Origin: a virus
Taxonomy: Duplodnaviria; Caudoviricetes
DNA length: 27,823 bases
Strand: one strand, 5' to 3'
Virus record (IMG/VR): IMGVR_UViG_3300025296_000094
Span: 1-27,823 of that record
The notes beneath the pieces are model-generated. The model saw only the letters and a program-made list of their open reading frames with translations. It was not told where the DNA came from and searched no databases. Of this stretch, positions 3,892 through 22,654 are shown one piece after another (the first letter of the stretch is position 1; every line of letters begins with the position of its first letter). The position numbers were made by a program, and so were the translations under genes.

Positions 3892-4356
3892 ATGGCTGAA
3901 TGTACCCTGCGGGCGTTTACGCAAGCAGATGGCGATTGGCTGCGAGAGTGGTTTCAGACGGACGCACAAGGCCTGGGTCAATTTCTGGGCTTTGCCTTGG
4001 AGAATGAAGGAGCCTGTATTGCAGGATTCAACAGTCTTTTTTCGGGGTGTCAGCAGGGGACAGCCCAGTTCTGGATGATTGATCGGGGAGCAGATCCGAT
4101 CGGCTTTGTGGCCCTGACGGATGTGCCTGCGACCCTGGATGTAGGGCGGGTGCATATCTACATTGAGCCTGCACAACGACGCTATAGCCTCCGGGCTGCG
4201 CGTGCCGCTCAACAGACGATTACCGAATTAGGGTTCAAGCGGCTGGTAGCTACACAGGCACGGGACAATAAAGCAGCAGCCGCTTTGGCCAAGCGTGTGG
4301 GGTTTCTCCCACATCCTATGGTGGTGTTAGAGAAACAGTTACACCCGGAGGGTTAG
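3892..4356 (+). CDS. GNAT-fold (RimJ/RimL-like) acetyltransferase-like protein; positional analogue of P22 gp14/T7 gp13
   Basis: LRAFTQADGDWLREW start, PIGFVAL strand, IYIEPAQRR motif A, DNKAAAALAKRVGF motif B. Confidence 0.85.
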   Translation: MAECTLRAFTQADGDWLREWFQTDAQGLGQFLGFALENEGACIAGFNSLFSGCQQGTAQFWMIDRGADPIGFVALTDVPATLDVGRVHIYIEPAQRRYSLRAARAAQQTITELGFKRLVATQARDNKAAAALAKRVGFLPHPMVVLEKQLHPEG

Positions 4357-8991: not shown

Positions 8992-11900
8992 ATGCCTCCA
9001 GAATCTTCGGCTCAAGCGCAGGCGCGGGCTTTCTTAGCCCAAATGTTGCAGCAGCCCGGTAGTCCAGCGCAGGTACGGGCTATTCAGCGGCTGATGGAGA
9101 GTGTTACACACGATGAGCAGACTGCACATGAGGTGTTACGGCGTCTTGGGGGGCAGTCTGTCCCTGACGTTGCACCTCCTAGTGTAGTACCCCCGACACA
9201 GCCTCCACCAGTACCGTCGCCTGCTCCTACTGTGGAAGGGGTAAGACGGCCTGCTCCTGAGATACCAAGTGGCCCAGGGTCACTGCCTCCTGGGATGCGG
9301 GGGATAGCCCCCACCCCACGGACAGCAGCGGAGACAGCCGAGGTACAGAGACGTCGGATATCTGGGATCACGAAGACTGCCCCAGCTCCCATAGATAGAC
9401 CAGCCCCTCCACCTGAGCCATTGCAATATCAACAGCAGTCGCAGGGCCTCTGGGGATCAGACCCAGAGCGGGCCGAAGAGCTGCTAGATTTTGCGCATGG
9501 GGTGGAGCTGTGGGATCTCCCCGCACTGGGGTATGAGATTAAGCGGGGCGCTAGGCCGTTTGTCCAAGGGCTCGTACAGCAGGCCAAGAAGGAAGGGAAG
9601 AAACTAACCCTCAAAGCCCTACGGCCCTACCTGGCAAAGAAGGTTGCGAAAGCGGCAGTACCTGCAGCATTTGGCCCTGCTGGGGCAGCGGCTGGGACTG
9701 CGTTAGGGATTGGCAGCACCGCATGGGATGTTGCCAAACTTGGGGGTCGACTGGCCAAGGGTGGGTGGCAGAATATTCCGCGAGCTAATCTGGCGCAGCG
9801 TATCGGGCGGGGAGTTTCGGCTCCCATTGCAGCCACTGCAGGCGCTGCCCGTATTGGGGAAGGCGTCCTGAGTGGAGATCCCCTTGGTGTGGGGTTGGGG
9901 ATTGGTGAGATTGGTTTAGGGGTAGCGTTACCTGCAGGCCTTGCCAGTACTGCAAGCCGCCGAGCCGCACGGACAGAGGCCGGAGAAGGTGCATTCTCAA
10001 CAGCCCTGGAGTATCTCAGTGGGACTCCCTCACCTGCAGCCGAAGATATCTATCGTCGTGTGCCGGACCTTCCTGCACCGGAGCCCCTCACACCGAAAGA
10101 CGCCACACCTTCAGTAACTGGCCGAACGCGGAAGCGCCCTGCTCCCACAGGTCCATCAGGGCAGCGGGTTGTTGATGAGGCCCAACGCCCCACGCCTCCA
10201 CCGGGAGAGGTTGCCCCGACAACTCGTGTGACCGACTTGGGACTCACAGTGCCAACCGGGAAGAAACCCCGTAGGGCCTTCCGCACAGTACTGAAGAGTG
10301 TTGTCGAGGCGGCATCTCCAACAGAAAAGGGGAGAGGGGTAAACAATAGACGGGTCGAGGCCATTATCGAGGAGGCCAAGAAGGATCCCACCGGCAACAC
10401 CCAAGCGTCTCAATGGGTCAAAGAAGCCCTGGCTACACACTATAAGGTCCCGCCTGACGAGCTTGTGGCACCTGTGCGAGGGCGCAAGCGCACGCGCAAG
10501 CCTAAGCCTCCTGCTGCGCCAGAGGTCCCTGAGGCAGCAGCGCAGCCTAGCAAGATTCCCTATAGCTCAAACCCTGAGCTGGGCACTGCAGACGAGCAGG
10601 AGGCATGGCGTGTTGCGACAAGGCTTGTGGGTACCGAGGCAGATGACGCCTGGGATCTTGTAGAGTCAACAGACATCAAAAACGTCAACAGGCTAGCCCA
10701 TCAGATCTTGCAAGGCGACCTCAAGGGGTCAGGCCTGGACCCTGAAGAGATGCAGGCTGCCCAGCAAGCCATCCTGGAGGGGGTCACAGCTAAGAGGGCT
10801 CAACTGGACCAGCTCCTCAAGGGGGAGCCAGCGCAAGTTGTCGATGAGGTCGTGGATGAGGTTCAGGCCCCAGCACCCACGGGGGTACTTGAGGGTAGAG
10901 GTGATCCCATCCCTGAAGGCTTCGAACGTTTGGTGCTCCCGAAAGGGGCAGAGTCTGTCGAACATAAATCAGGAATCTTCAAGCGTGCGCGGGAGGTGGT
11001 ATCAGACACCTTCGGGATGCCCATCTCAACGAAGCCCAGAGGGAATACGGACCTCAATCGGTTGACTGGGCAGATCCTTACGCGCCCAGAGGATCTCCAA
11101 CAAGCGAATCTCCGTAATCAGATTATCCGTGAGGTTATGGGTGAGGGCGCACTGGTTGAGACTCCCAAGGTGCCCAAGGTCCGAACACCGCGTACCACCA
11201 AGGTCACCAAGGAAGCGGGCGAAGAGGTCATAGATCCCACAGTGGTCGAAGAGGTTGCTGATGTCGTACCCATACCACCAGAAACGGGCGCAGCGGCTCG
11301 TGTGGTGGCGGCCACCCCCGAACAACTCGACGAGCTGGATACGGGATTTGAGCAGCTGGTGTCTGACATCCGCAATCTCGCTGATGAGGACTTGGGTGAA
11401 GAACTCGCTGATGCTCGCCTTGGGTGGGAGGAGGTGTTTGAGCGTGCAGTCGACCGCACGAGAGTCGGAGTCGAAGGGATACAACACCCTGCAGGAGGCA
11501 CTGTAGCTGCACGGGAACAGGTGTTAGAGATTGCGGATGAGCTGATCGCCCAGACAGACGCACTGGACCCCGAGGCCCAAGCCTATGTGAATACCCTCCG
11601 TGAACGGCACGGTGAGGTGGGTGGGGCGATGGCGAAGGTGGATGCCCCGACTGGATCCCCGCGATTACCACGCACCGATCCCCCAACTGCAGGGGAAGCC
11701 GGTGTCAAAGCCGTACCCACTGAATATACTGCCAAACAGCTCCAGGGGCGGAGTAAGCGGGTTCTACAGCTCAGGGAGGACTATCTCAAGGTTGAAGGCG
11801 CAACCAAAAAGACCTGGAACGCTGCCAAGAGGGGGAATGAAGCAGCCCTGCGATCGGTCAATGCCACGCTTGGACGGGCACACGGCACAGGGGCTACGGG

Positions 11901-14900
11901 AGAAGTGGCAGGGCCTGCCCGCCAGCTTGAAATAGCACGCGGAGCTGCTGAAGTTCCGAAATCGCCGGAGCAGCTGCTCCATTTAGCTGAGCAAGCGAGA
12001 GAGGAAGCGACGGCCCTGGCGAGCCGCGCACGCGCAGTAGAGGGTGCTGAAGAAATTACTGAGCAGGGGCGTGTGTTGTCTGACGTGCCCACCATGGTGG
12101 GGAAACTCAAGACACCACAGGAAGCGCTTACTTTCACCATCAAGTTGCAGCGTAGTGTCACTGCGATCCAGGAGGACTTGGTTGCTGTACTGAATCAGAT
12201 TGCAGACCTGCCCGCGCATAAGGATTTCTTTACGCGGACTGGCTCAGGGCCCACCAAATGGGAAACCGAAGCCAAGCAACTGATCGCTAAAAGACGCCAG
12301 TTGCGGACTGATCTTGAAGACCAGGAAGCGGCGTTAAGCGCCCTGCAAGAGCAAGCACGTACACACGAAGGGGTTTTCTTTGAGCGCACACGTGCGGGAG
12401 ATGTCCCCTCCGAGCAACGGGCTCCTGTTCCGACTGCGCTTACAGACCTGAACACCACGATCCCCGCACTGCAACGGAAGGTGGGTGGCACATCAGTCGA
12501 AGACGAAATCAGGGAGGTCTTTAAGGGGCGCTCGTCAACAGTGGAAGGGGCTACGCAAGCTGATGTGCTCTTGGACAGCATACGCCGGTATGCAGAGGCT
12601 GTACAAACAGGTGTCGTTGGTACCACGAGGGGCGCTGCAAAACTCTTCAGTACACACCTTGAGAATCTGGCCTTACATTTGGTGGATGCTGCGAACGAAG
12701 CAGGCCGCGTGACTCCCCGTAAGCTGGATCCGCCAGGGGCAACAGAGGCGAAACTAGGGCGCAAACCCTATGGGAAACTCAAGTTTGCAGGGGAAGGGCA
12801 GAGAGGGTGGACGCTTCGAGGATTTGGGCCAGGGAAGGGGAGCATGCCTGGTACACGTACCGGGAAAGACGAGGGCTTTACTTTCTTTCAATCCTTCGAT
12901 GCTGACATGGCGGACCCTGACGTGCGGGAAGCAGTACATAAGGATGCCATCAATAGTCTCCAGGCAGCCTTTGGACGGATTCAGCAAGAGGGGCAAGCGG
13001 CAGGAGAAGCGGCGATTCCCGTGAGTGGCGTCCCATTCCAGGATGTCATGAAACTGGTAGAGGTGCTGGAGGGCGCAAATGCTCCCGAGCAGGGGCAGCG
13101 TATCTGGACACAGTTCGTGCGGATGAACTGGGCACGCCGACAGGCCCTGAAAGCTGAGGGGTTGATGCAGACGATCTGGTCTGACCCTACGGCCCCGAAA
13201 CAACCGTTTGATGACGAGTTCATGGATGTGTTTCAAGCACTCTATGATGGATCTGTTAACGAGATTACCCGCTGGGCCAATGCCATAGCGACATCCCAAC
13301 TACCACCAGGTACTGTAAAGTGGAAGCCTTCCACAAAAGCGAGTCTCCTCCGCTATGAACAGGGGACGGATACACCTCGACGTGCCCATGAGAAGTTATG
13401 GCAGCAAGATATTGACGTACCCCGTGCCAACCTTACAGCCTGGCGTACACGGCGATCAGTAGAACCCGTACAGCAGATGATGTCTCAACCAGCAGGGGTA
13501 GAGGGCCTAACCGTTGAGCGGATGGGACAGGAGTTGGATGACTATTTGAAGGCTGTGAACTCGGCTGTTGAGGCGGCCCTTGGGGCCAGGACTGGGGGTA
13601 ACACCCTCAACTTGATGATGAATGTTGGGATGATCCCTCGCAAGCATCTACCAGCAGCTATATCCGGTACTGTTGGGGGCCTGGGTGGCTGGGAGCAAGG
13701 CGAAAATATTGTAGCCGAAGAGGGCATGACAGGCCTACCCGCAGCAGCGACACGGCTCGCTACGACAGCAGGGGGTATGGCGTTTGGGGCTACCACACCA
13801 GGGTATCTGGCTCCTCGCCTGATTACGTCGGCGAAGGGGACAATCAAAACAGCAACCAAGGCTGGGTCCTTGATGATGAATTGGTTGCTCTCCAGTCCAC
13901 GTTCGATCCTCAAAGCCTGGATGGGAGCCCACAATGGGACCATCTATGCAGGTAATGAGCGCATATTGGAGGGTTTGTACTCGCAGCTGGGGAGTCTACA
14001 ACTGAAACGCACCGCTACGACGCCGCGGCAGAAGGAGCGGGCAATCAAAGCCGAGACACAAGGGCGTGCTTTAGTCAAAGATGGGCTCAATATTCTGAAG
14101 GGTGTTGCTGGGGAGGATCTCCGCTTTGCCGCTAACCTGGTACCCAAAGCAGTGCGGAAACACCTGGGAGCTTTTGATGCCTTCGCAGACAAGAGCCTGA
14201 TTAAACAGGTGTTCGGGTTGGATGTGACAACGCCTGAAGGTAAGCAGGCGATGCGGGGCTTATCCGCCCAGTTCAGCCGGATGACTGATGAACAGTTCGA
14301 GGCGTTGCTGGAGTCTGACCGACTCGATGGGCGGCTCAGTAATGCCATTATTGGGAGACTGTTTCGGTCAGCGGACTGGGCGTTTCAGAACATCATGACC
14401 AAGAACAACGTGCCCTTTGAGAAGGCACGGCAGTACACCCTGACCGGGAAGCTCGATACAGCAGATGCACAGCGGGTCATGGATTTCTTCCAGCCCCCGA
14501 AAGGCCCCACGAGTACTCTAGGGACTGTCGCCAAGAAGCTCGTCTCGCCCGTGCCACGTGTAGGGTTACAGGCCTTGGAGCGGGGGGTCGAACGTACGCT
14601 TGCGCCCGTGCATTACCTGGCCAAGCGTGCCATGGGGGCTCCGCAGGTCCGTCCGTCCCAGAGTCCGTTTGGCAAGCTCACCCCTCGAAGTACCCCGGAT
14701 GCGTTAGCTAAACTGACCACGGCAGGAGGCGCTGCGGGGGTGGGGGCACTTGGGACAGAGCACCTGAACCCCCGGTTACAGCCTATGTTTGCAGCGTTCA
14801 TGGGACCTGGTGCGATCCCAGCGACAGCAGCGGCGGGCGTCATGGAGGGACTGCGTGCAGGTACAAACCCCCTGACCGGGGCTATCTCCCGTATTAGCCG

Positions 14901-15882
14901 TGAGGCAGCTCCTATCAATCTAGAAGGCCAGGCAATTAACACCTCGAATATTGGAGGGGAGCTGTTGCGGCGGCTGGTTGTCCCATCCCACGCCCGGGAT
15001 TGGGCCCAGATAGGGGATTTGGCAGCTCCCGAAGGCCGGATCAGCTCGGGCCCCCAGTTAATGCGGGCACTGGCGGAAGGGTCCTTGGACCTTAGCCGCC
15101 CAGGGGGTGCCTTCCTGGAGAACGCCATGACACTTGGCCCCAAGTGGTCGAGGCCGTGGACCACAGGGGCTGCTGCGGAGCTGATGCTTGCCTCGCCGTA
15201 TCATCGCCAGGGTCTGCCTCCAAAGCCCTTGGTGAACCGTGATGTGATGGGACAGGAAGCCTTCCCGGTAGGGGGATTACCCGCACCACCGACCATCCCA
15301 TTTTTGCAGGAGGGGTGGCAGACACTCCGTCGTCCCTCCACGGAGGCACAAGTGAATGCTGCCGCTGAACTCCTGCGCGGTCCACAACCCCAGACGTTTG
15401 GGTCTGGTGGGGCACAGCCTGTAGCTGATGTGCTGCAAGCCCTGGGACGTGTGGGGTCAGAAGCGGTAGGGCGCACCCTGTTTCCTACGTACCAGTCTAT
15501 GCGGCCTACTGCCCCCACGGGGATCGATCCAGTCCTCCAGGAATTGGCGACCTGGGGGGCTGCTGACTTGGTGCAACAACGTGGGCTGCCTGGATTCACT
15601 CCCGATCCTACAACAGGGGGCGGCCTCCGTGATCCCCTGACGAACCTGCCAACGACACCCCAACGGCGGGGACGGGAACTGGCAGCTGAAGTTGCGGGTC
15701 AGGAGATGGCTGGTATCTATCGCACCGTGCAAGGGATGATGGCTTCTGGTCAGTGGGAGCAGCTATCTGCTAGAGAACGGCGGCTCTTCATTAATCAACT
15801 ACGCCGGAACTTGGGGGCGTTGCCAGGTGGGGGTGGGAATCGAGTCGCTGGTGCGATCTGGAGACGTCCACCTGTACCCTAA
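8992..15882 (+). CDS. Giant internal virion/DNA-ejection protein (2296 aa; T7 gp16/P22 gp16-like position)
   Basis: Last gene of the virion arm. Ala/Gly hydrophobic segments, a central coiled coil, and C-terminal motifs (LLSSPRSILKAWMG, RLFRSADWAF, ARQYTLTG, PVPRVGLQALERGVERT) resembling the C-terminal region of large podoviral ejection proteins. Confidence 0.75.
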   Translation: MPPESSAQAQARAFLAQMLQQPGSPAQVRAIQRLMESVTHDEQTAHEVLRRLGGQSVPDVAPPSVVPPTQPPPVPSPAPTVEGVRRPAPEIPSGPGSLPPGMRGIAPTPRTAAETAEVQRRRISGITKTAPAPIDRPAPPPEPLQYQQQSQGLWGSDPERAEELLDFAHGVELWDLPALGYEIKRGARPFVQGLVQQAKKEGKKLTLKALRPYLAKKVAKAAVPAAFGPAGAAAGTALGIGSTAWDVAKLGGRLAKGGWQNIPRANLAQRIGRGVSAPIAATAGAARIGEGVLSGDPLGVGLGIGEIGLGVALPAGLASTASRRAARTEAGEGAFSTALEYLSGTPSPAAEDIYRRVPDLPAPEPLTPKDATPSVTGRTRKRPAPTGPSGQRVVDEAQRPTPPPGEVAPTTRVTDLGLTVPTGKKPRRAFRTVLKSVVEAASPTEKGRGVNNRRVEAIIEEAKKDPTGNTQASQWVKEALATHYKVPPDELVAPVRGRKRTRKPKPPAAPEVPEAAAQPSKIPYSSNPELGTADEQEAWRVATRLVGTEADDAWDLVESTDIKNVNRLAHQILQGDLKGSGLDPEEMQAAQQAILEGVTAKRAQLDQLLKGEPAQVVDEVVDEVQAPAPTGVLEGRGDPIPEGFERLVLPKGAESVEHKSGIFKRAREVVSDTFGMPISTKPRGNTDLNRLTGQILTRPEDLQQANLRNQIIREVMGEGALVETPKVPKVRTPRTTKVTKEAGEEVIDPTVVEEVADVVPIPPETGAAARVVAATPEQLDELDTGFEQLVSDIRNLADEDLGEELADARLGWEEVFERAVDRTRVGVEGIQHPAGGTVAAREQVLEIADELIAQTDALDPEAQAYVNTLRERHGEVGGAMAKVDAPTGSPRLPRTDPPTAGEAGVKAVPTEYTAKQLQGRSKRVLQLREDYLKVEGATKKTWNAAKRGNEAALRSVNATLGRAHGTGATGEVAGPARQLEIARGAAEVPKSPEQLLHLAEQAREEATALASRARAVEGAEEITEQGRVLSDVPTMVGKLKTPQEALTFTIKLQRSVTAIQEDLVAVLNQIADLPAHKDFFTRTGSGPTKWETEAKQLIAKRRQLRTDLEDQEAALSALQEQARTHEGVFFERTRAGDVPSEQRAPVPTALTDLNTTIPALQRKVGGTSVEDEIREVFKGRSSTVEGATQADVLLDSIRRYAEAVQTGVVGTTRGAAKLFSTHLENLALHLVDAANEAGRVTPRKLDPPGATEAKLGRKPYGKLKFAGEGQRGWTLRGFGPGKGSMPGTRTGKDEGFTFFQSFDADMADPDVREAVHKDAINSLQAAFGRIQQEGQAAGEAAIPVSGVPFQDVMKLVEVLEGANAPEQGQRIWTQFVRMNWARRQALKAEGLMQTIWSDPTAPKQPFDDEFMDVFQALYDGSVNEITRWANAIATSQLPPGTVKWKPSTKASLLRYEQGTDTPRRAHEKLWQQDIDVPRANLTAWRTRRSVEPVQQMMSQPAGVEGLTVERMGQELDDYLKAVNSAVEAALGARTGGNTLNLMMNVGMIPRKHLPAAISGTVGGLGGWEQGENIVAEEGMTGLPAAATRLATTAGGMAFGATTPGYLAPRLITSAKGTIKTATKAGSLMMNWLLSSPRSILKAWMGAHNGTIYAGNERILEGLYSQLGSLQLKRTATTPRQKERAIKAETQGRALVKDGLNILKGVAGEDLRFAANLVPKAVRKHLGAFDAFADKSLIKQVFGLDVTTPEGKQAMRGLSAQFSRMTDEQFEALLESDRLDGRLSNAIIGRLFRSADWAFQNIMTKNNVPFEKARQYTLTGKLDTADAQRVMDFFQPPKGPTSTLGTVAKKLVSPVPRVGLQALERGVERTLAPVHYLAKRAMGAPQVRPSQSPFGKLTPRSTPDALAKLTTAGGAAGVGALGTEHLNPRLQPMFAAFMGPGAIPATAAAGVMEGLRAGTNPLTGAISRISREAAPINLEGQAINTSNIGGELLRRLVVPSHARDWAQIGDLAAPEGRISSGPQLMRALAEGSLDLSRPGGAFLENAMTLGPKWSRPWTTGAAAELMLASPYHRQGLPPKPLVNRDVMGQEAFPVGGLPAPPTIPFLQEGWQTLRRPSTEAQVNAAAELLRGPQPQTFGSGGAQPVADVLQALGRVGSEAVGRTLFPTYQSMRPTAPTGIDPVLQELATWGAADLVQQRGLPGFTPDPTTGGGLRDPLTNLPTTPQRRGRELAAEVAGQEMAGIYRTVQGMMASGQWEQLSARERRLFINQLRRNLGALPGGGGNRVAGAIWRRPPVP

Positions 15883-15902: not shown

Positions 15903-16241
15903 TCAGTCAGTCTGATGTACTCCTCCTTCGGAGAGGGATGACGGGGCGGGATCATCCCGCTCCGCATTCCGTTTGAGCCACTCTCGATAGTAGGCTTCAA
16001 AGTGCAGGGGCATGACAGGGGTACCCACGAGACAGAGGGGACAGCCAGGACAGGGACCGTGGACACGATTCCAGCCCCAGGTCCATGCGCGTGCAACTGT
16101 GCCCCGTAACGGATTCTCCCACCGCTGGTGTTGACGGCGACAGGCGCTCCCACCCCGTTTGGCGGCACTTCGAATCTGTTGGCGCAGGGGGACCGCAGTG
16201 GACGTAGCCGGATCTTTGCGTACGCGGTGGCTAGAGGACAT
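15903..16241 (-). CDS. Small protein with Rmf/CrpP-like motif and Cys cluster (112 aa)
   Basis: ATG overlaps the end of the polymerase gene. AAKRGGSA-x9-NPL-x7-WTWGW parallels RMF AHQRGYQA-x9-CPY-x8-WLGGW. Followed by HGPCPGCPLC. Confidence 0.6.
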   Translation of the reverse strand: MSSSHRVRKDPATSTAVPLRQQIRSAAKRGGSACRRQHQRWENPLRGTVARAWTWGWNRVHGPCPGCPLCLVGTPVMPLHFEAYYREWLKRNAERDDPAPSSLSEGGVHQTD

Positions 16242-18963
16242 AGGGCTCTAAGCAGTCCCACGCTGGGCCCCACTGGGCTTCGACATCAATGGCGAGGTGT
16301 GTCCCCATCTTCCACTCGGCAGGGAGGGGTAACCACGGGACAGGTTGTTGCATGATACGTGCGACTGTCTCGACAATGTGCGGAAGTTCTGTAATCGCAC
16401 ACTCACCCACGAGGGAGTCATGAATAAACAACCGCAAGGCCCGCAACGCTGTGGGGGAATGCTGTGCCACTGCGCGTACAGCCCGACGCCCGATCGCAGC
16501 GGCGGCATGCTGGGGGTTGAAGGCAATCAAGGCCTTGGCGGAGGGACCGTAGGTCCAGGTCCAGCTATCATCAGACACCCGTGTCCAGGTCAGCACCCGG
16601 AAGTAACGATGGAGCATCCCTGAGGGATTGCGTACCCACCCTGCGCCTGCGTCAATACCCAAGCCGGGATCGCTGGTGCTATCGGTCCCATCGACACGCA
16701 GGCAGAGCTGTTGCTGCCACCGTGTAATCTCAGGGAAGAGGGCATCATAGAACTGGAAGAACGCCTTGATATCTTTTACGGGAATGACCCGATTGAGTTC
16801 CTTGAGGAGGACTTCTTGCGCCTTGAAGGGTCCCATCATGTAGTGATGTCCATGTACCAGGCGCTTGCGCACGAAGCGTTCCTTCGGGAAGTCCTGCTTG
16901 AACTGGTGTAAGGACGCCCGGAGGGTGGCATCGTCCCAGTCCAACTGTGGCAGGTCACTAGCTGGAATGACCTTATCAAGGTGGTGGAGGGCATGGGCAT
17001 TCACATAGTCATGTACCCCCATGCGGGCGAGGCGGATCAACTGGGGACTGCGTGCAAAGTACCCCACCAACACAGCTTCGATCCCCGTGTAGTCGATCTC
17101 CCAGAAGGCTGAGCCTGTGGGAGCCACGAACATGGACTTGACCAGGGACTGCAACCCACCCCCATGGGGGATCTGTTGCAGGTTGGGGTTTACCATCGAG
17201 GTGCGCAGGGTGTCCGGGTTGTTAGTAATGGTGGGGTGGCAGCGTCCATCAGCCTGGACAGGCAATCCCCCAACGACCTTGCCCCGCACCAGCTTCCCGA
17301 TGTAGGTCCCCGCCAGCTTCTGCACCTCACGGTAGTCCAACACCAGGGGATAGAGGGAGTCATCCGGGTGCTTGAGGAGGAGAGCACGCAGGGCGGTCTC
17401 GTCTGTCGTACGCTTCCCTCTCCGCCGGATGGCCTGATGCCCTTGAAAGTCCTGCCACTTCTGGATGTTCTGCCAGCTGGCGACAAAGGGGAGCGGCACC
17501 TCCCAGGCTTCCCCTTGGATGGTGCGCGTCTCGAGGAGGAGGGTACGGTCTGCCTTGACGCAGGGATGGCGGCTCCCCAACTGGCCCTCCTTGCCGCACG
17601 CAGGACAGTGCTGTACTTCCAGGGGTACAGGTACCGTGTAGCCGTGTGGAAATTTGTGGCGTGCCCGGCCCACGTGCTTGTAGCGCTTCTTGGGCTTGAG
17701 CATCAGGGGCACCACCGCCTGAATCTGCTCATCAAGGGCTTCCAGTTTGGTGTGTAAGGTGCCAGCATGCGTGCGTCGGATGGTCGCATCAATCGGCATG
17801 CCCGCTGCGTGCATGCGCTGGAAGATGGGTTCACACCCTACGATCTGGTCTTGATACAGTCGCCACATCCCGACCTCCTTGAGGAGGTCCCATGTTTTGA
17901 GTGTGATCTGGCGGGCGGCATCACTGTCGATCGCATTGTAGTAGGCGGGGTTCTCTCGGCTTAGGTGCTTCCACCGTGACTGGTTATCCAGGAGGAGCGA
18001 GGCAGCAAAGCCCAGGCTCTTGGGCAGGTCTGAGTGCAGCACATGCCATGCCACCATCCCATCATAGATGTCACCCTTGATGGGATACCCCTTGGCTTCC
18101 AGTCGCGGGCAATCGAATGCCGCATTCCACACAATCTTGGGATTCGGACTCGCCAAAATTTTGTGAATGGTGGGGTGCATGCGCCGAGTGACCCTAATGC
18201 TGAGTGCCCGTCCGGGTGCGGTGGCAAAGCTGATCCGATCAATGGGGGCACTGGCTTTGAGGTCCAGTTCATCCTCATCACGGGCCTTGTCCCGTGTCTC
18301 AATGTCAAAGGCGATGGGGGTGTCAGGGTTCTGGAGTTCTTTCGCGGCCCAGGCTGCGGCTGCATCACTGGTGGGATCCAAGGCATAGTGGTGGCGCGTG
18401 CGGTGATGCCCCGTGGTGGCAATGCGCATGGCCAACTGTAGATCATGAATCAGTACGGCAGCAAAGTTGGCGTTGCCCCGTAGGATGTAGCTGGGATGGA
18501 CGGAGGGGAGCAGCAGGTGCTGTCGCCAGTAGGAGACATACCCACGTGCAGCCAGGAGTGGTGTTGGGCTCCCGCCCGTGAACTGTTGGAAGGCTGTATT
18601 CCCTAACGGTACGATGACCCGATACGAGGGCTTGCCTGCATAGATAGCAGGTAAGAGGTGTGCATCCCAGCAGTGGGCTAAGGCGCGTGGTACTGCAGGG
18701 TGGGTAATGTCATTACGTGGAGGGCGACACCAGAGGGCATTCGCAATGCTAAATTGACTACGCTCGAACCCGGCCCGTGCGATGCAATCATTCAACACCC
18801 GACCAGCCGGACCCACAAAGGGCCGACCTTCTCGCGCTTCCTCTGCGCCAAGGGCTTCTCCAACGAGGAGGACACCAGCGGTGCCCTCCCCATCGAGTGC
18901 CATGAACCCCTCCCCTGCCTGATCCAAGGGACAGCCTTGGCAGGCGGCAGGTTTGGTGAGCAT
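16231..18963 (-). CDS. polA: Family A DNA polymerase with N-terminal family-4 uracil-DNA glycosylase and 3'-5' exonuclease domains (910 aa)
   Basis: UDG: CQGCPL, GEALGAEEAREGRPFVGPAG, NALWCRPP, HPSY. Exo: FDIET, WNAAFD, YNAID. Pol: PNLQQIP, motif A DYTGIE, motif B RFVRKRLVHGHHY, motif C IHDS. Confidence 0.95.
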   Translation of the reverse strand: MLTKPAACQGCPLDQAGEGFMALDGEGTAGVLLVGEALGAEEAREGRPFVGPAGRVLNDCIARAGFERSQFSIANALWCRPPRNDITHPAVPRALAHCWDAHLLPAIYAGKPSYRVIVPLGNTAFQQFTGGSPTPLLAARGYVSYWRQHLLLPSVHPSYILRGNANFAAVLIHDLQLAMRIATTGHHRTRHHYALDPTSDAAAAWAAKELQNPDTPIAFDIETRDKARDEDELDLKASAPIDRISFATAPGRALSIRVTRRMHPTIHKILASPNPKIVWNAAFDCPRLEAKGYPIKGDIYDGMVAWHVLHSDLPKSLGFAASLLLDNQSRWKHLSRENPAYYNAIDSDAARQITLKTWDLLKEVGMWRLYQDQIVGCEPIFQRMHAAGMPIDATIRRTHAGTLHTKLEALDEQIQAVVPLMLKPKKRYKHVGRARHKFPHGYTVPVPLEVQHCPACGKEGQLGSRHPCVKADRTLLLETRTIQGEAWEVPLPFVASWQNIQKWQDFQGHQAIRRRGKRTTDETALRALLLKHPDDSLYPLVLDYREVQKLAGTYIGKLVRGKVVGGLPVQADGRCHPTITNNPDTLRTSMVNPNLQQIPHGGGLQSLVKSMFVAPTGSAFWEIDYTGIEAVLVGYFARSPQLIRLARMGVHDYVNAHALHHLDKVIPASDLPQLDWDDATLRASLHQFKQDFPKERFVRKRLVHGHHYMMGPFKAQEVLLKELNRVIPVKDIKAFFQFYDALFPEITRWQQQLCLRVDGTDSTSDPGLGIDAGAGWVRNPSGMLHRYFRVLTWTRVSDDSWTWTYGPSAKALIAFNPQHAAAAIGRRAVRAVAQHSPTALRALRLFIHDSLVGECAITELPHIVETVARIMQQPVPWLPLPAEWKMGTHLAIDVEAQWGPAWDCLEPYVL

Positions 18964-19488
18964 TTATGGACGGACGAAGTAGAAGATGTTGGCGCGGGCG
19001 GGCACCTTCTTTCCATCCGGGTTGGTTACATAGGGGAGTTTCTCCCCCGGTTTGTCTGGGTTATCAGGGAAGTCCTGATAGTTATTGGCAAGGACTACTT
19101 GGGCATCCTTATCCCAGCACCGCCATGAGACTTCCGCTTCAAAGAAACAGCCTGCTGTGGAACGCACAGCCCCCATGGCCTCGTCGACATTGTTGGTCCC
19201 GAGTGGGGGGATCCCACAGGCTTTGAGGTAGTCGGTCAAGCGTGAGCCATTCCCACTGCGCTTGGGCTTGAAGCTCGCTCGCACGAAACGGATGCTGTCG
19301 TAGTAGCCCTCGGGTGGATCCTCAATACTAAGGTCCATGACCACACCCAGGTAGCCTTCGTCTTCGTAGAACTCGAAGTCGGTAGGAGCCTTGAAGGTAT
19401 AGCGCCCGGCTGGAACGGGGCCTTCAAATTCACGGTCATCCCATTGGGTTGGATCTGGTCCTTTGAGTCCGGTTGGATCGAATGTCAT
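18964..19488 (-). CDS. Putative phage single-stranded DNA-binding protein (DUF669-like OB fold), 174 aa
   Basis: GPVPAGRYTF N-terminal motif, LTDYLKACGI; located between the Sak4-like ATPase and the polymerase; ATGA coupling. Confidence 0.7.
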   Translation of the reverse strand: MTFDPTGLKGPDPTQWDDREFEGPVPAGRYTFKAPTDFEFYEDEGYLGVVMDLSIEDPPEGYYDSIRFVRASFKPKRSGNGSRLTDYLKACGIPPLGTNNVDEAMGAVRSTAGCFFEAEVSWRCWDKDAQVVLANNYQDFPDNPDKPGEKLPYVTNPDGKKVPARANIFYFVRP

Positions 19489-20399
19489 ACTGCTGTACTC
19501 CTTCGCTCAGATTGTTGTAAACGTGTTTGTAGTTCTTTGGCAGCTGCCGCTTCACGGGCAGCCAAGATTCGTAACGCTGTCACGAGTGAGGCTGGTTCGA
19601 TTGAGGCTGGCACCTGAACCTCTGCACCCGCCTTGGGTAGACGGGGGTTGGACAGGACCACTGTGCGCGGTCCCAGCTGGGGGTCTGTGTGCGGGGATAG
19701 GTGGAGATGGTATTTCCCTCCGGTCATGGAGCACCGGAACGTGTAGTCCATCCACCGTGGCAGCTGTCCCGTCAAGGCATCCCCTACTACAAGGGGACCC
19801 AGGACGGGGGTGTTCGCTGCACTCTCACCCCGGCGGGCACCAGCCGTATAAATGTGAGGCACCGGGGGTTTCTCTGCAAGCACCCCCTCCCGTATCTGTA
19901 ATTGGGCCATTCCGTAGTGGGCCATGTTGGAGGTGCCCACCTTTAACGTGTCTTTGCCCTCTCGAATAGTGACATTCCATGCGCCTTCTCCCCCGATGTT
20001 GGTTCCTGCGGAGGACATGGTAGCCATGGTAGACATGAGCAGTTCTGCGTAGGCCGTCAAGCCTTCATGCACCACCAGACCTACCCCCTCGTTCCCTTCA
20101 CCAGCAACGGTTTCATAGGTTTGTGTTTGTGCGTTGCGTACCTCCCCACGGAGCGCGTGGTGTATCCATAACCAGGGGTTCCCCCCGTTGGGGGTATAAA
20201 GTGTGGCAGCTCCGTGCTCTGCCAGAATACGGTAGGGCTTGACGCTGCCCCGGTCAGCTAGAAAGATGGCACTGGTGGTGCCACGGGTGACGTAGAGTTC
20301 TTCTACAAGTTCGGCAATGATGGTGGACTTGCCGTGTCCAGTGTCTCCCCACAATAGGACAGACAATTCTTTAGGTAATATGAGTGGTTGCTCAGTCAC
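19485..20399 (-). CDS. Phage AAA_24/Sak4-like P-loop ATPase (RecA-like single-strand annealing protein), 304 aa
   Basis: LLWGDTGHGKST Walker A; LVVHEGLT atypical Walker B; GP.VVG..LTGQLPRWMD pattern; GAGGAGG SD with GTG start; sits between a nuclease and an SSB. Confidence 0.8.
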   Translation of the reverse strand: MTEQPLILPKELSVLLWGDTGHGKSTIIAELVEELYVTRGTTSAIFLADRGSVKPYRILAEHGAATLYTPNGGNPWLWIHHALRGEVRNAQTQTYETVAGEGNEGVGLVVHEGLTAYAELLMSTMATMSSAGTNIGGEGAWNVTIREGKDTLKVGTSNMAHYGMAQLQIREGVLAEKPPVPHIYTAGARRGESAANTPVLGPLVVGDALTGQLPRWMDYTFRCSMTGGKYHLHLSPHTDPQLGPRTVVLSNPRLPKAGAEVQVPASIEPASLVTALRILAAREAAAAKELQTRLQQSERRSTAV

Positions 20400-20479
20400 T
20401 CGTCCTCCTCTTCAATGATAACGATCTCTGTGCTTACAAGAATCCATAACCATATCATGGCCAAAATAACGATACTCAT
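20396..20479 (-). CDS. 27-aa single-transmembrane peptide, MSIVILAMIWLWILVSTEIVIIEEEDE (not in ORF track)
   Basis: Exactly fills the gap: its ATG overlaps the nuclease TGA (ATGA) and its TGA overlaps the ATPase GTG (GTGA). Hydrophobic stretch followed by an acidic tail. Confidence 0.65.
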   Translation of the reverse strand: MSIVILAMIWLWILVSTEIVIIEEEDE

Positions 20480-21711
20480 TGCGGTCGCCCTAGGTCTTCA
20501 TTCTCGACTTTCCTTTCACACAGCCCCTGTTCTGCGAAGTGGTGGGGGCGGCGGGGTGAGTACAAACCACTGCCTGTTGGGTCAGTTTGTACGGGTTTAA
20601 CGTGACAGGCTTCAAAGAATTGGCAGCGTCCGTAGCCTGTTTCGCATTGGGTCATGACCATCGGGAACTGGGTGCGGTGGACATCTGGCTCAGCACCATG
20701 GGTACACCGCAGGGCATGGATCTCCCGCTCCCGTGCAGCGAGCTGGGGTAGGATCTCTTCCCGCATCAAGCGGGTCTTCAGGAACAGGGGGTTCGTGCGG
20801 GGGAAGCACTTGGCCACCATCTCTGGTTCTTTTTTGTGGAGCTGGGCAATCCATCCCGGCATTCCCCCGTCGGGATACTCTGTGGTATTGAACCGTTCGA
20901 ATCCCGTGCGGCGTTTGGTGCCGTAGGTTGGCTCGGTCACACCCGGTGTGCCGGGGTGTCGATAGCCGTAGACCAAGGGATGATACAGCACCCCCTTGCG
21001 CCCACTGCCTTTGCCAAGCCCTTGCACCCAAGCGCCTGTGATGGGGGTACCCAAGGCTTCTTCGGCAGCAAGCATGGTCAGTTGTTGTTGTAGACTCCAG
21101 TCCCACTTGCGATTGTTCCATGAGGTGAAGGTCTTGAAGTCGGGATACCAGATGTCCCCTGTCTGTTTGTCCTTCAGCAGCAGGTCGGGGCGCACCATGA
21201 AGGTCACCCCATCGACCTGCATTTCCAGTTCCTGTTCAACGGCAATGGGTTCAAACTGTGTCATCCATTCAGGCCATAGCACCTGAAAGAACCCTGCTAG
21301 GAGGGCCCGTGCTGTGTCCTGCTGGTCATTGGAGAGGGACTGCCAGACATTGATGGGGGCACGGGGGTCAATTTGGTCAGCGGCTCCTGGTCCCAAGCCT
21401 TCCATCATCCACTGTCCCCCCTCTGCTGGAGGGCACTCGAAGTCCATGGAGGGTACCCACCGATTGTGATCGGCGATAGTATTCTCTAGGATCTGGTACT
21501 CGAGTCCCGTATGGACTGCCAGTCCGAAGGCCAGTGCGGGGGAGGGCACACTAGGTTGCAACCCAGACGGCCACCCCATTGTGGTCTCGGTTCCAATGTA
21601 GAGGGGATCGCTTGGCCCTAAAGCATTAAATTCGGTCGACCAGTAGCGCCGTCGAGGGCACGCCCAGTCTGTTTCGATGCGGGAACGGTCAGTTAATATG
21701 CTCAATCTCAT
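20476..21711 (-). CDS. PD-(D/E)XK Cas4/RecB-like exonuclease with probable Fe-S cysteines (411 aa; start may be TTG at 21705)
   Basis: WACPRRRYW, FGLAVHTGLE, VEQE, VRPDLL, YPDFKT, Q..M, C-terminal CETGYGRCQFFEAC. AGGAGG abuts the ATG but lies 6 nt from the in-frame TTG. Confidence 0.85.
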   Translation of the reverse strand: MRLSILTDRSRIETDWACPRRRYWSTEFNALGPSDPLYIGTETTMGWPSGLQPSVPSPALAFGLAVHTGLEYQILENTIADHNRWVPSMDFECPPAEGGQWMMEGLGPGAADQIDPRAPINVWQSLSNDQQDTARALLAGFFQVLWPEWMTQFEPIAVEQELEMQVDGVTFMVRPDLLLKDKQTGDIWYPDFKTFTSWNNRKWDWSLQQQLTMLAAEEALGTPITGAWVQGLGKGSGRKGVLYHPLVYGYRHPGTPGVTEPTYGTKRRTGFERFNTTEYPDGGMPGWIAQLHKKEPEMVAKCFPRTNPLFLKTRLMREEILPQLAAREREIHALRCTHGAEPDVHRTQFPMVMTQCETGYGRCQFFEACHVKPVQTDPTGSGLYSPRRPHHFAEQGLCERKVENEDLGRPQ

Positions 21712-21739: not shown

Positions 21740-22654
21740 ATGCAACTATCATCGTTACTCCCACCTAATGAGGTGAGTGTGTTGGCTGGCGCTTCGGGAG
21801 CTGGCAAGTCTACCCTGCTGCTCCAGTTTCTGAAGACCTGGCAGGCCGGAGACTCCTTCCTAGAGATACCGCCCCCCAAGCAGCGAATAGCGTATCTGGT
21901 AGGGGACCGTTCCATCCGCTCGCTCCAACAGCGAGCAGTCGATGTTGGTCTGGACCTGGCGTCGTTTCCCTGCTCGTCGTTGATTGACGATCGGGACTTG
22001 GACATTCAGCAGTTCAAGGTAGACCCGTTGGGGTTGCTCTTCACGTTGCTGGATGCCTTGGAAGGACCGCTCTTTATTGTCGATCCGTTGATTGTCTTTC
22101 TCGGTGTGGACTTGAATCGGTATAACCTCGTTGCGCCTCAACTAATCCAGCTGAATCGCTTTTGTCAACAGCGGAACTACACCGTCTTGGGCACACATCA
22201 CACTACGAAAGCCCGCACGGACTTCGCCTTCCTCCGACCACAAGACCGCATCTCAGGTAGCTCTGCGTTGAGTGCGTTTACGTCAACCCAGCTCGCCCTC
22301 ACCTCCCCGGATGAAGTGCAACATGCTGTGCCTTTGTTGGAGTCGGCGGCTCGGTTGGATGTGGTGAGTCACTTGGCTGCCCCCGAAACCCACTGGTTAA
22401 GTCGGGGACCACAAGGACTGTTCACGCCGATGGGACCAGAAGCCGAGAAGATTCTGCAGGTCTGTGGCCCGGCAGGTTTGGCGGTGTATCAAGCCATCCC
22501 ACCGAGCCGCAGTCTAGAAACCGCTGAGATCATCGGTGCCCTGGAAGGGGTGACCTCACGGGCCACCATCTTCCGGCATCTGGAGAAGCTCGTCGCCGCT
22601 GGGATTCTCCAGCGACAGGAGCGGGGGTGTTATCGTCGAGCGTCTGTTCACTAG
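21740..22654 (+). CDS. AAA_25/RepA-like (SF4-related) helicase-type ATPase with C-terminal winged HTH (304 aa)
   Basis: VSVLAGASGAGKST Walker A; FIVDPL Walker B; LGTHHTTK; ISGSSAL; C-terminal TAEII...SRATIFRHLEKLVAAGILQRQERGCY wHTH. No SD, so probably leaderless. Confidence 0.85.
   Translation: MQLSSLLPPNEVSVLAGASGAGKSTLLLQFLKTWQAGDSFLEIPPPKQRIAYLVGDRSIRSLQQRAVDVGLDLASFPCSSLIDDRDLDIQQFKVDPLGLLFTLLDALEGPLFIVDPLIVFLGVDLNRYNLVAPQLIQLNRFCQQRNYTVLGTHHTTKARTDFAFLRPQDRISGSSALSAFTSTQLALTSPDEVQHAVPLLESAARLDVVSHLAAPETHWLSRGPQGLFTPMGPEAEKILQVCGPAGLAVYQAIPPSRSLETAEIIGALEGVTSRATIFRHLEKLVAAGILQRQERGCYRRASVH

Follow-up and report, generated by a model that had tools for sequence, protein, structure and literature searches.

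Histidine at position 762 characterizes a separate clade of glycosylase-fused family A DNA polymerases in uncultured phages

The stretch of DNA analyzed here (the window; IMG/VR record IMGVR_UViG_3300025296_000094, 27,823 nucleotides) is a virus record that is 66% complete. On its minus strand it carries gene P0001, whose product combines a uracil-DNA glycosylase (UDG) of family 4, a 3'-5' exonuclease and a family A DNA polymerase (PolA), and in which a histidine occupies the place of Phe762 in Escherichia coli Pol I. The features of the gene are listed below; polymerase positions follow E. coli numbering unless P0001 is named.

16231..18963, minus strand: UDG/3'-5' exonuclease/family A DNA polymerase gene P0001, 910 aa
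18430..18945, minus strand: family 4 UDG domain, P0001 residues 7-178 (PF03167, E 1e-20)
Within 18430..18945, minus strand: UDG residues Cys8, Cys11, Cys79, Cys98, Glu42, Phe49, Asn75 and His156 of P0001
17923..18309, minus strand: proofreading exonuclease motifs I-III, intact, with Asp220, Glu222, Asp284, Tyr342 and Asp346 of P0001
17560..17607, minus strand: thumb insertion with Cys453, Cys456, His466 and Cys468 of P0001, predicted zinc site
17197..17211, minus strand: TGR-type motif, here TLR (TLRTS); equivalent of Arg668 retained, middle residue variable
17071..17094, minus strand: motif A; Asp705 and steric-gate Glu710 retained, clade traits Gly708, Ala711 and Val712
17038..17040, minus strand: Leu642 of P0001, equivalent to E. 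coli position 723
16831..16878, minus strand: motif B / O-helix, with Arg754, Lys758, His762, His765, Tyr766 and Met767
16852..16854, minus strand: His704 of P0001, equivalent to E. coli Phe762, codon CAT
16843..16845, minus strand: His707 of P0001, equivalent to E. coli Ile765
16507..16536, minus strand: motif 6; Ala814, Pro817 and Gln818 of P0001, equivalent to Asn845, Met848 and Gln849
16414..16422, minus strand: motif C, here His-Asp-Ser, unremarkable for a phage PolA

The polymerase domain of P0001 is recognized by Pfam (PF00476, E 1.7e-21), and an AlphaFold model of the protein has a Klenow-type fold (Foldseek match to 8oo6, E 1e-25; 4dsj, Z 32.3, root-mean-square deviation 3.2, 551 residues aligned). 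All hallmark residues of family A are present: Arg668, Asp705, Glu710, His734, Arg754, Lys758, Tyr766, Gln849, His881 and Asp882, with motif B reading Arg696, Lys700, His704, Tyr708 and Met709 in P0001 numbering. The catalytic Asp, Lys and Tyr residues are thus retained, as the original prediction, made from the letters alone, had said. The UDG domain aligns to the family 4 enzymes 1ui0 and 1l9g (E ~1e-21) and contains four cysteines, Glu42, Phe49, Asn75 and His156, which we take to be, with Thermus thermophilus UDG (1ui0) as reference, the Fe-S cysteines and the Glu, Phe, Asn and His of the uracil pocket. The UDG catalytic residues are conserved across the relatives of P0001; the Pro of the GE-x-PG motif is replaced by Leu in P0001. 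Judged by its domain content, P0001 is a member of the UDG-PolA class, with an N-terminal family 4 UDG, an exonuclease and a polymerase, and its intact UDG residue set is predicted to be active. Such fusions are already known, as described in PMC10201439 and PMC13697223. The Cys-Cys-His-Cys insertion in the thumb, conserved in 147/162 (Cys), 151/161 (Cys), 138/164 (His) and 116/158 (Cys) aligned rows, is predicted to be a clade-wide zinc site, and we infer that it binds metal.

The placement of His704 was examined in three ways. Both a family profile of 34 relatives compared with the Klenow fragment and a MAFFT alignment that included E. coli Pol I (numbering confirmed on its sequence) put His704 in the column of Phe762; in the AlphaFold model (pLDDT 91.7), whose best structural matches are Pol I large fragments, a helix formed by residues 693-707 bears Arg696, Lys700 and His704, with Tyr708 at its end. 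The three agree with the original assignment of the codon at 16852-16854, and His704 almost certainly sits at position 762. Histidine was found there in 49/49 proteins of the first search and in 50 of the 51 IMG/VR loci having motif B, two of the 53 loci ending before this motif. The whole stretch is also present in single pieces on contigs of three other runs, and the only change listed in the His codon across the four metagenome runs compared with the stretch is synonymous. This conservation, together with the intact contigs and the synonymous codon change, argues that His762 is neither a sequencing error nor a chance occurrence. Across 17 studies, 20 marine metagenome runs contain the stretch; one run may be its own source, and no RNA dataset is listed among them.

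A profile search of representatives at 50% identity returned at least 150 matches, every one above 628 bits, and the His762 clade spans at least 150 clusters at this identity. The 258 pooled rows were reduced to 230 covering the polymerase domain and then to 189 non-redundant relatives at ≤80% identity, to which the residue counts given below refer. At position 762 these carry His in 167, Tyr in 14, Leu in 5, Asn in 2 and Phe in 1, compared with His in none of 16 reference enzymes (14 references and two DpoZ). In a tree of 16 members and the 16 references, the members form a clade (stem 0.39, SH-aLRT 98.8, UFBoot 100); SPO1-like enzymes are represented by LysYB1 and 010DV005, and SPO1 itself and SP15-like sequences were left out. 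A second set comprised 124 further proteins, in 101 of which the Lys of motif B was aligned. Their family profile scores are split, with a gap from 236 to 177 bits separating the family from the rest: the 34 proteins scoring at least 236 bits have His22/Leu10/Phe1/Tyr1 at 762, and the 67 scoring at most 177 bits have Phe55/Tyr7/His4/Leu1. Alignment and phylogeny with the PolA and DpoZ families, the check proposed at the outset, upheld His at 762 and did not place DpoZ as sister to the clade. A tree in which DpoZ adjoined the His762 clade, obtained by adding DpoZ onto an existing alignment, is regarded as an artefact, as the placement was gone after realignment from scratch. By alignment and phylogeny, His762 is the hallmark of a separate PolA clade of uncultured phages, which bears out the suspected divergent lineage. 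Pattern matching against GTDB genome contigs gave 55 hits and no confirmed relative, and no close cultured phage was found, the best match having 29% identity in pieces and another search matching mostly an insertion. The nearest outgroup, with weak support, is locus L054 (MW202554.1, 3138-4364), a gene in two pieces with Tyr762, Tyr754 and Ser845.

Textbooks treat position 762 as the switch for acceptance of dideoxynucleoside triphosphates (ddNTPs), and its residue, always given as Phe, Tyr or Leu, serves to mark phage lifestyle. That it is usually one of these three, as the original prediction had it, is stated in PMC6302109, PMC9069017 and PMC10201439 and in two preprints. Nasko 2018 gives Phe, Tyr and Leu counts that total 2,045 of 2,095 peptides, with 50 unaccounted for. 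The survey in PMC9069017 retained solely Phe, Leu and Tyr at 762, a filter by which a His762 clade would be dropped by design. Literature searches, with supplements and subscription papers outside their reach, found no description of His762. A His class may have been mentioned by workers on position 762, but no search supported this. His762 is a genuine, conserved feature of an enzyme type that is known in itself, and this variant of it seems not to have been described.

All of the other unusual residues listed in the original prediction are present as stated, and they differ in weight. Ala845 and the loss of Arg712 are clade-wide: position 845 is Ala171/Ser17/Gly1, with Asn in 12/14 references, and Arg712 is retained in only 3 relatives. 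Pro848 is found in 182/189 and Ala711 in 180/189, position 708 is Gly, Ala or Ser in 189/189, and Gly715 and Ala727 are nearly fixed in the clade. HDS, TLR and Met767, on the other hand, were dropped as diagnostic marks. HDS is ordinary in the references (5/14, as well as both DpoZ; its Ser is also present in T5 according to the DpoZ paper), with Ser115/Glu54 at position 883 among the relatives; position 667 is variable (Leu96/Gly28/Trp23, with Arg668 retained in 185), as is position 767 (Gly106/Leu23/Met20/Arg17). The residue at 754, Arg in P0001, is Tyr in 89/189 relatives, and position 766 is Phe in 25/189. The catalytic Asp705 and Asp882 are invariant (189/189), and Lys758 is found in 188/189.

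Substitutions at 762 were traced by parsimony along a tree whose alignment had columns 754 and 762 removed. The root state is His, with 16 changes (to Tyr 9, Leu 4, Asn 2 and Phe 1), and the 14/16 departures that end in the Phe/Tyr/Leu alphabet support the register at 762. Changes from His to Tyr make up 9/16 at this position, as against 75/449 at 334 other columns (p 0.0005). A single Tyr762 clade is rejected (24 rows; approximately unbiased test, p 2e-7), and at least five changes are forced by well-supported branches. Position 765, which lies one helical turn from 762, is Asn128/Ser14/Ala9/His8/Gly8 in the 167 His762 enzymes and Leu or Phe in none of them, compared with Leu or Phe in 8/9 Tyr/Phe762 lineages, the top result among 1,695 column/residue tests; in the second set, it is Asn, Ser, Ala or Thr in 26/26 His762 proteins. 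Position 723 ranked second, with Tyr in 151/167 His762 enzymes, and Phe723 in 7/9 Tyr/Phe762 lineages vs 3/167. The window's subgroup combines His765 with Leu723; Tyr723 is absent in 7/8 His765 rows, and its loss there is likely a single event. Taken together, the pattern points to a polar 723/765/762 unit whose members change together. The repeated coupled swaps name candidate compensating residues, with natural double and triple variants ready for testing; compensating changes for Leu enzymes are listed as open in a 2026 T7 preprint (10.64898/2026.05.20.726624).

We propose, with a probability of roughly 55%, that P0001 is a UDG/proofreading/PolA fusion that serves as an ordinary A/C/G/T replicase and in which His762 acts like the tyrosine of T7. 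According to the T7 preprint (10.64898/2026.05.20.726624), Phe762 packs against the incoming sugar and Tyr526 of T7 makes, in addition, a hydrogen bond with the β-phosphate; F710Y in Bst lets in ddCTP, as given in PMC10520511. By analogy, the imidazole of His762 would pack on the sugar of the incoming nucleotide and hydrogen-bond toward the β-phosphate, oriented by Tyr723 and by the polar residue at 765 (Asn; His in the window's subgroup) one turn along the helix, and once Tyr takes the place of His762 these partners would give way to hydrophobic residues, of which Leu765 in T7 is an example. Rejection of ddNTPs is predicted to be weaker than in Phe762 enzymes, whereas exclusion of ribonucleoside triphosphates would be kept through Glu710 and Tyr766, and the glycosylase domain would likely remove template uracil, as shown for SP15-like enzymes. 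The Tyr-like nucleotide contact is inferred from sequence; altered sugar selectivity is plausible, and any biotechnological value of His762 enzymes hinges on kinetics.

Several points weigh against this proposal. Histidine is shorter than tyrosine and may fall short of the phosphate, and because His-to-Tyr is a single transition and Phe takes two base changes, the preference for Tyr over Phe may be mutational. The p-values are too small, since they take no account of kinship among the His sequences; the second set's two Tyr/Phe762 family members are without Leu765 (0/2), and Asn765 is retained in 3/14 Tyr762 rows of the first set. At least ten more family members carry Leu762, so that part of the clade can do without the polar contact. 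Finally, the window is 66% complete and the records of its six closest relatives 48-75%, so that modification genes of other kinds could be missed.

A more far-reaching possibility, which we hold as tentative, is that the clade represents a fourth natural chemistry at 762. In this view a hydrogen-bonded Tyr723-Asn765-His762 set would be ancestral to the clade and would have changed jointly to Phe723-Leu765-Tyr762 on repeated occasions. Its sugar selectivity would differ from that of enzymes with Phe, Tyr or Leu, as in an acceptance of dideoxy or 3'-modified nucleotides that depends on pH, and the His-steric-gate polymerases would have arisen within the clade. Conversely, the coupling could serve only to pack the fingers, with His762 stacking as Phe does and selectivity being ordinary. 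We consider this rather unlikely. In its favour, covariation speaks for structural coupling and not for substrate chemistry, the small residues fixed nearby (Ala711, Gly715, Ala727) fit a repacking and Leu762 subgroups occur; against it, the residues at 765 and 723 are polar alongside His and hydrophobic alongside Tyr or Phe, and the replacements of His include Asn twice but Phe only once. It appears improbable that the rebuilt site (His762, Ala845, Pro848) belongs to a relaxed polymerase that reads through abasic sites left by its own glycosylase. The N845A mutation lowers the fidelity of Klenow (PMC10520511 and PMC3347538), His762 and Ala845 occur together in at least 3/4 distant His762 proteins, and the glycosylase residues are conserved; however, Phe762 UDG-PolAs already bypass abasic sites, as described in PMC13697223, the proofreading residues of P0001 are intact, and its kind is the sole polymerase found in genomes of 45-97 kb.

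The original prediction had also raised a pocket adapted to a modified deoxynucleoside triphosphate (dZTP, hm-dUTP or another base). The UDG-PolA phages SPO1, SP-15 and YerA41 have modified thymine, genes for MazG, dGTP_diPhyd_N, nucleoside deoxyribosyltransferase or dCMP deaminase are present in some relatives of P0001, and Phe766 occurs as noted above. These pool enzymes are patchy in distant relatives, however (deoxyribosyltransferase 8, dGTP_diPhyd_N 7, MazG 4 and dCMP deaminase 2 of 54 loci), and no pool-editing gene is conserved clade-wide. PurA/PurZ matched 0/37 relatives' records (0/18 of those at least 90% complete), the control matching 2/2 Z phages, and there is no purZ among the 28 open reading frames (ORFs) of the incomplete window. 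Thymidylate-synthase-like PF00303 likewise matched 0/37, with a control that found 3/4 and missed SP-15; QueD and TGT each gave 0/37 with cellular controls only, and HMUDK_hel and Tet_JBP 0/37, but their controls gave no match either. Thy1, found in 2/37 records, points to normal dTMP, and the family 4 residues retained in the fused UDG argue against a uracil genome. Moreover, position 762 touches the sugar, and the modified-thymine enzymes of phiLo and YerA41 carry Phe there; P0001 keeps Tyr766 and shows no kinship with DpoZ. Use of modified nucleotides by P0001 is unsupported and a pocket so adapted has little to recommend it, whereas copying of canonical bases is probable. A Phe766 subgroup (loci L021, L022, L023, L031, L032 and L033) has MazG, dGTP_diPhyd_N or deoxyribosyltransferase neighbours and no PurZ match.

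In architecture, P0001 resembles other UDG-PolAs. SP15- and SPO1-like enzymes (Missoury 2026, PMC13697223; Czernecki 2023, PMC10201439) share with it a family 4 UDG with catalytic residues, an exonuclease and PolA; Phe occupies position 762 in the SP15-like enzymes of phiLo and YerA41 (Phe930/Phe1055), and this type carries large inserts and a C-terminal domain (YerA41, 1306 aa), whereas P0001 (910 aa) ends just past motif C. Among SPO1-like enzymes, Spounavirinae LysYB1 has Phe762 and Asn845 and lies outside the His762 clade, 010DV005 is likewise apart in the tree, and both phages have PF00303 matches, unlike the His762 relatives (0/37). The N4-like UDG-PolAs (cluster 17 of Czernecki 2023) resemble P0001 in domain order and length, but their UDG is degenerate and their residue at 762 is Phe; XC38, an enzyme from the Schitoviridae, reaches 70 bits with the family profile and falls outside the clade. 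The closest folds are bacterial Pol I large fragments (Klenow, Bst, KlenTaq; Z 31-32), which share the catalytic residues, and E. coli Pol I has the best family-profile score among references (157 bits); Phe762, Asn845, Gln708, Leu711 and Arg712 of Pol I are all replaced in P0001, which is without the 5' nuclease and has gained the UDG and the Cys/His thumb insertion. T7 gp5, whose Tyr762 offers a polar ring as the proposed analogy for His762, is distant (15 bits), with Leu765 and Asn845 and without a UDG. DpoZ enzymes (phiVC8-like and Wayne-like; 47 and 19 bits) have HDS in motif C, as does P0001, and phiVC8 is also without Asn845, but they have Leu or Phe at 762, Phe766 and purZ in the genome, in contrast to His762 and Tyr766 (Tyr708) in P0001.

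P0001 is very probably the active replicase of the phage: matches to PF00476 are confined to the P0001-type gene region in 37/37 relatives' records, and all 18 near-complete ones yielded neither a family B nor a family C polymerase. The gene lies next to the following genes.

18964..19488, minus strand: conserved neighbour, 174 aa, likely a single-strand DNA binding protein (phrog_378 matched by one member out of five tested, E 5e-4)
19485..20399, minus strand: conserved neighbour, 304 aa, likely Sak4-type annealing ATPase (four of five members tested match phrog_124)
20476..21711, minus strand: PD-(D/E)XK exonuclease
21740..22654, plus strand: AAA_25 ATPase, likely replicative helicase

Among the 54 loci compared, many of them truncated, the corresponding clusters occur in 38 (Sak4-like), 34 (single-strand DNA binding protein-like), 34 (PD-(D/E)XK exonuclease) and 27 (AAA_25 ATPase); Pfam was run on 300 of 435 neighbour-ORF representatives, the rest being short singletons (133) or longer than 1,500 aa (2).

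The polymerase genes of the relatives vary in other respects. Steric-gate position 710 is His in P0156, P0158, P0171 and P0178 (also P0230, P0248, P0254 and P0264); these polymerases are mostly Leu762, four of them group inside the His762 clade, and in P0171 positions 710 and 762 are both His. The gene is often split or interrupted (L019, L028-L030, L032, L036, L038, L039, L042, L043, L050, L051 and L053), with endonuclease or methylase genes between some of the pieces, and several proteins, P0045 and P0046 among them, bear intein-like insertions at motif A or ahead of it. Elsewhere, ORFs of 1,792 and 1,825 aa in two close relatives, L008 13504-18876 (minus strand) and its counterpart in L015 (G002:C1:8114-8656, G004:C1:15473-15703), contain a tyrosine-recombinase-like match (PF00589; E 1e-8 and 1e-7); the window has no such match. 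The window itself encodes a 2,296-aa ORF without Pfam or PHROG match (8992-15882, plus strand), and a GNAT acetyltransferase (3892-4356, plus strand) lies in the same plus-strand block as this ORF and a virion-protein match.

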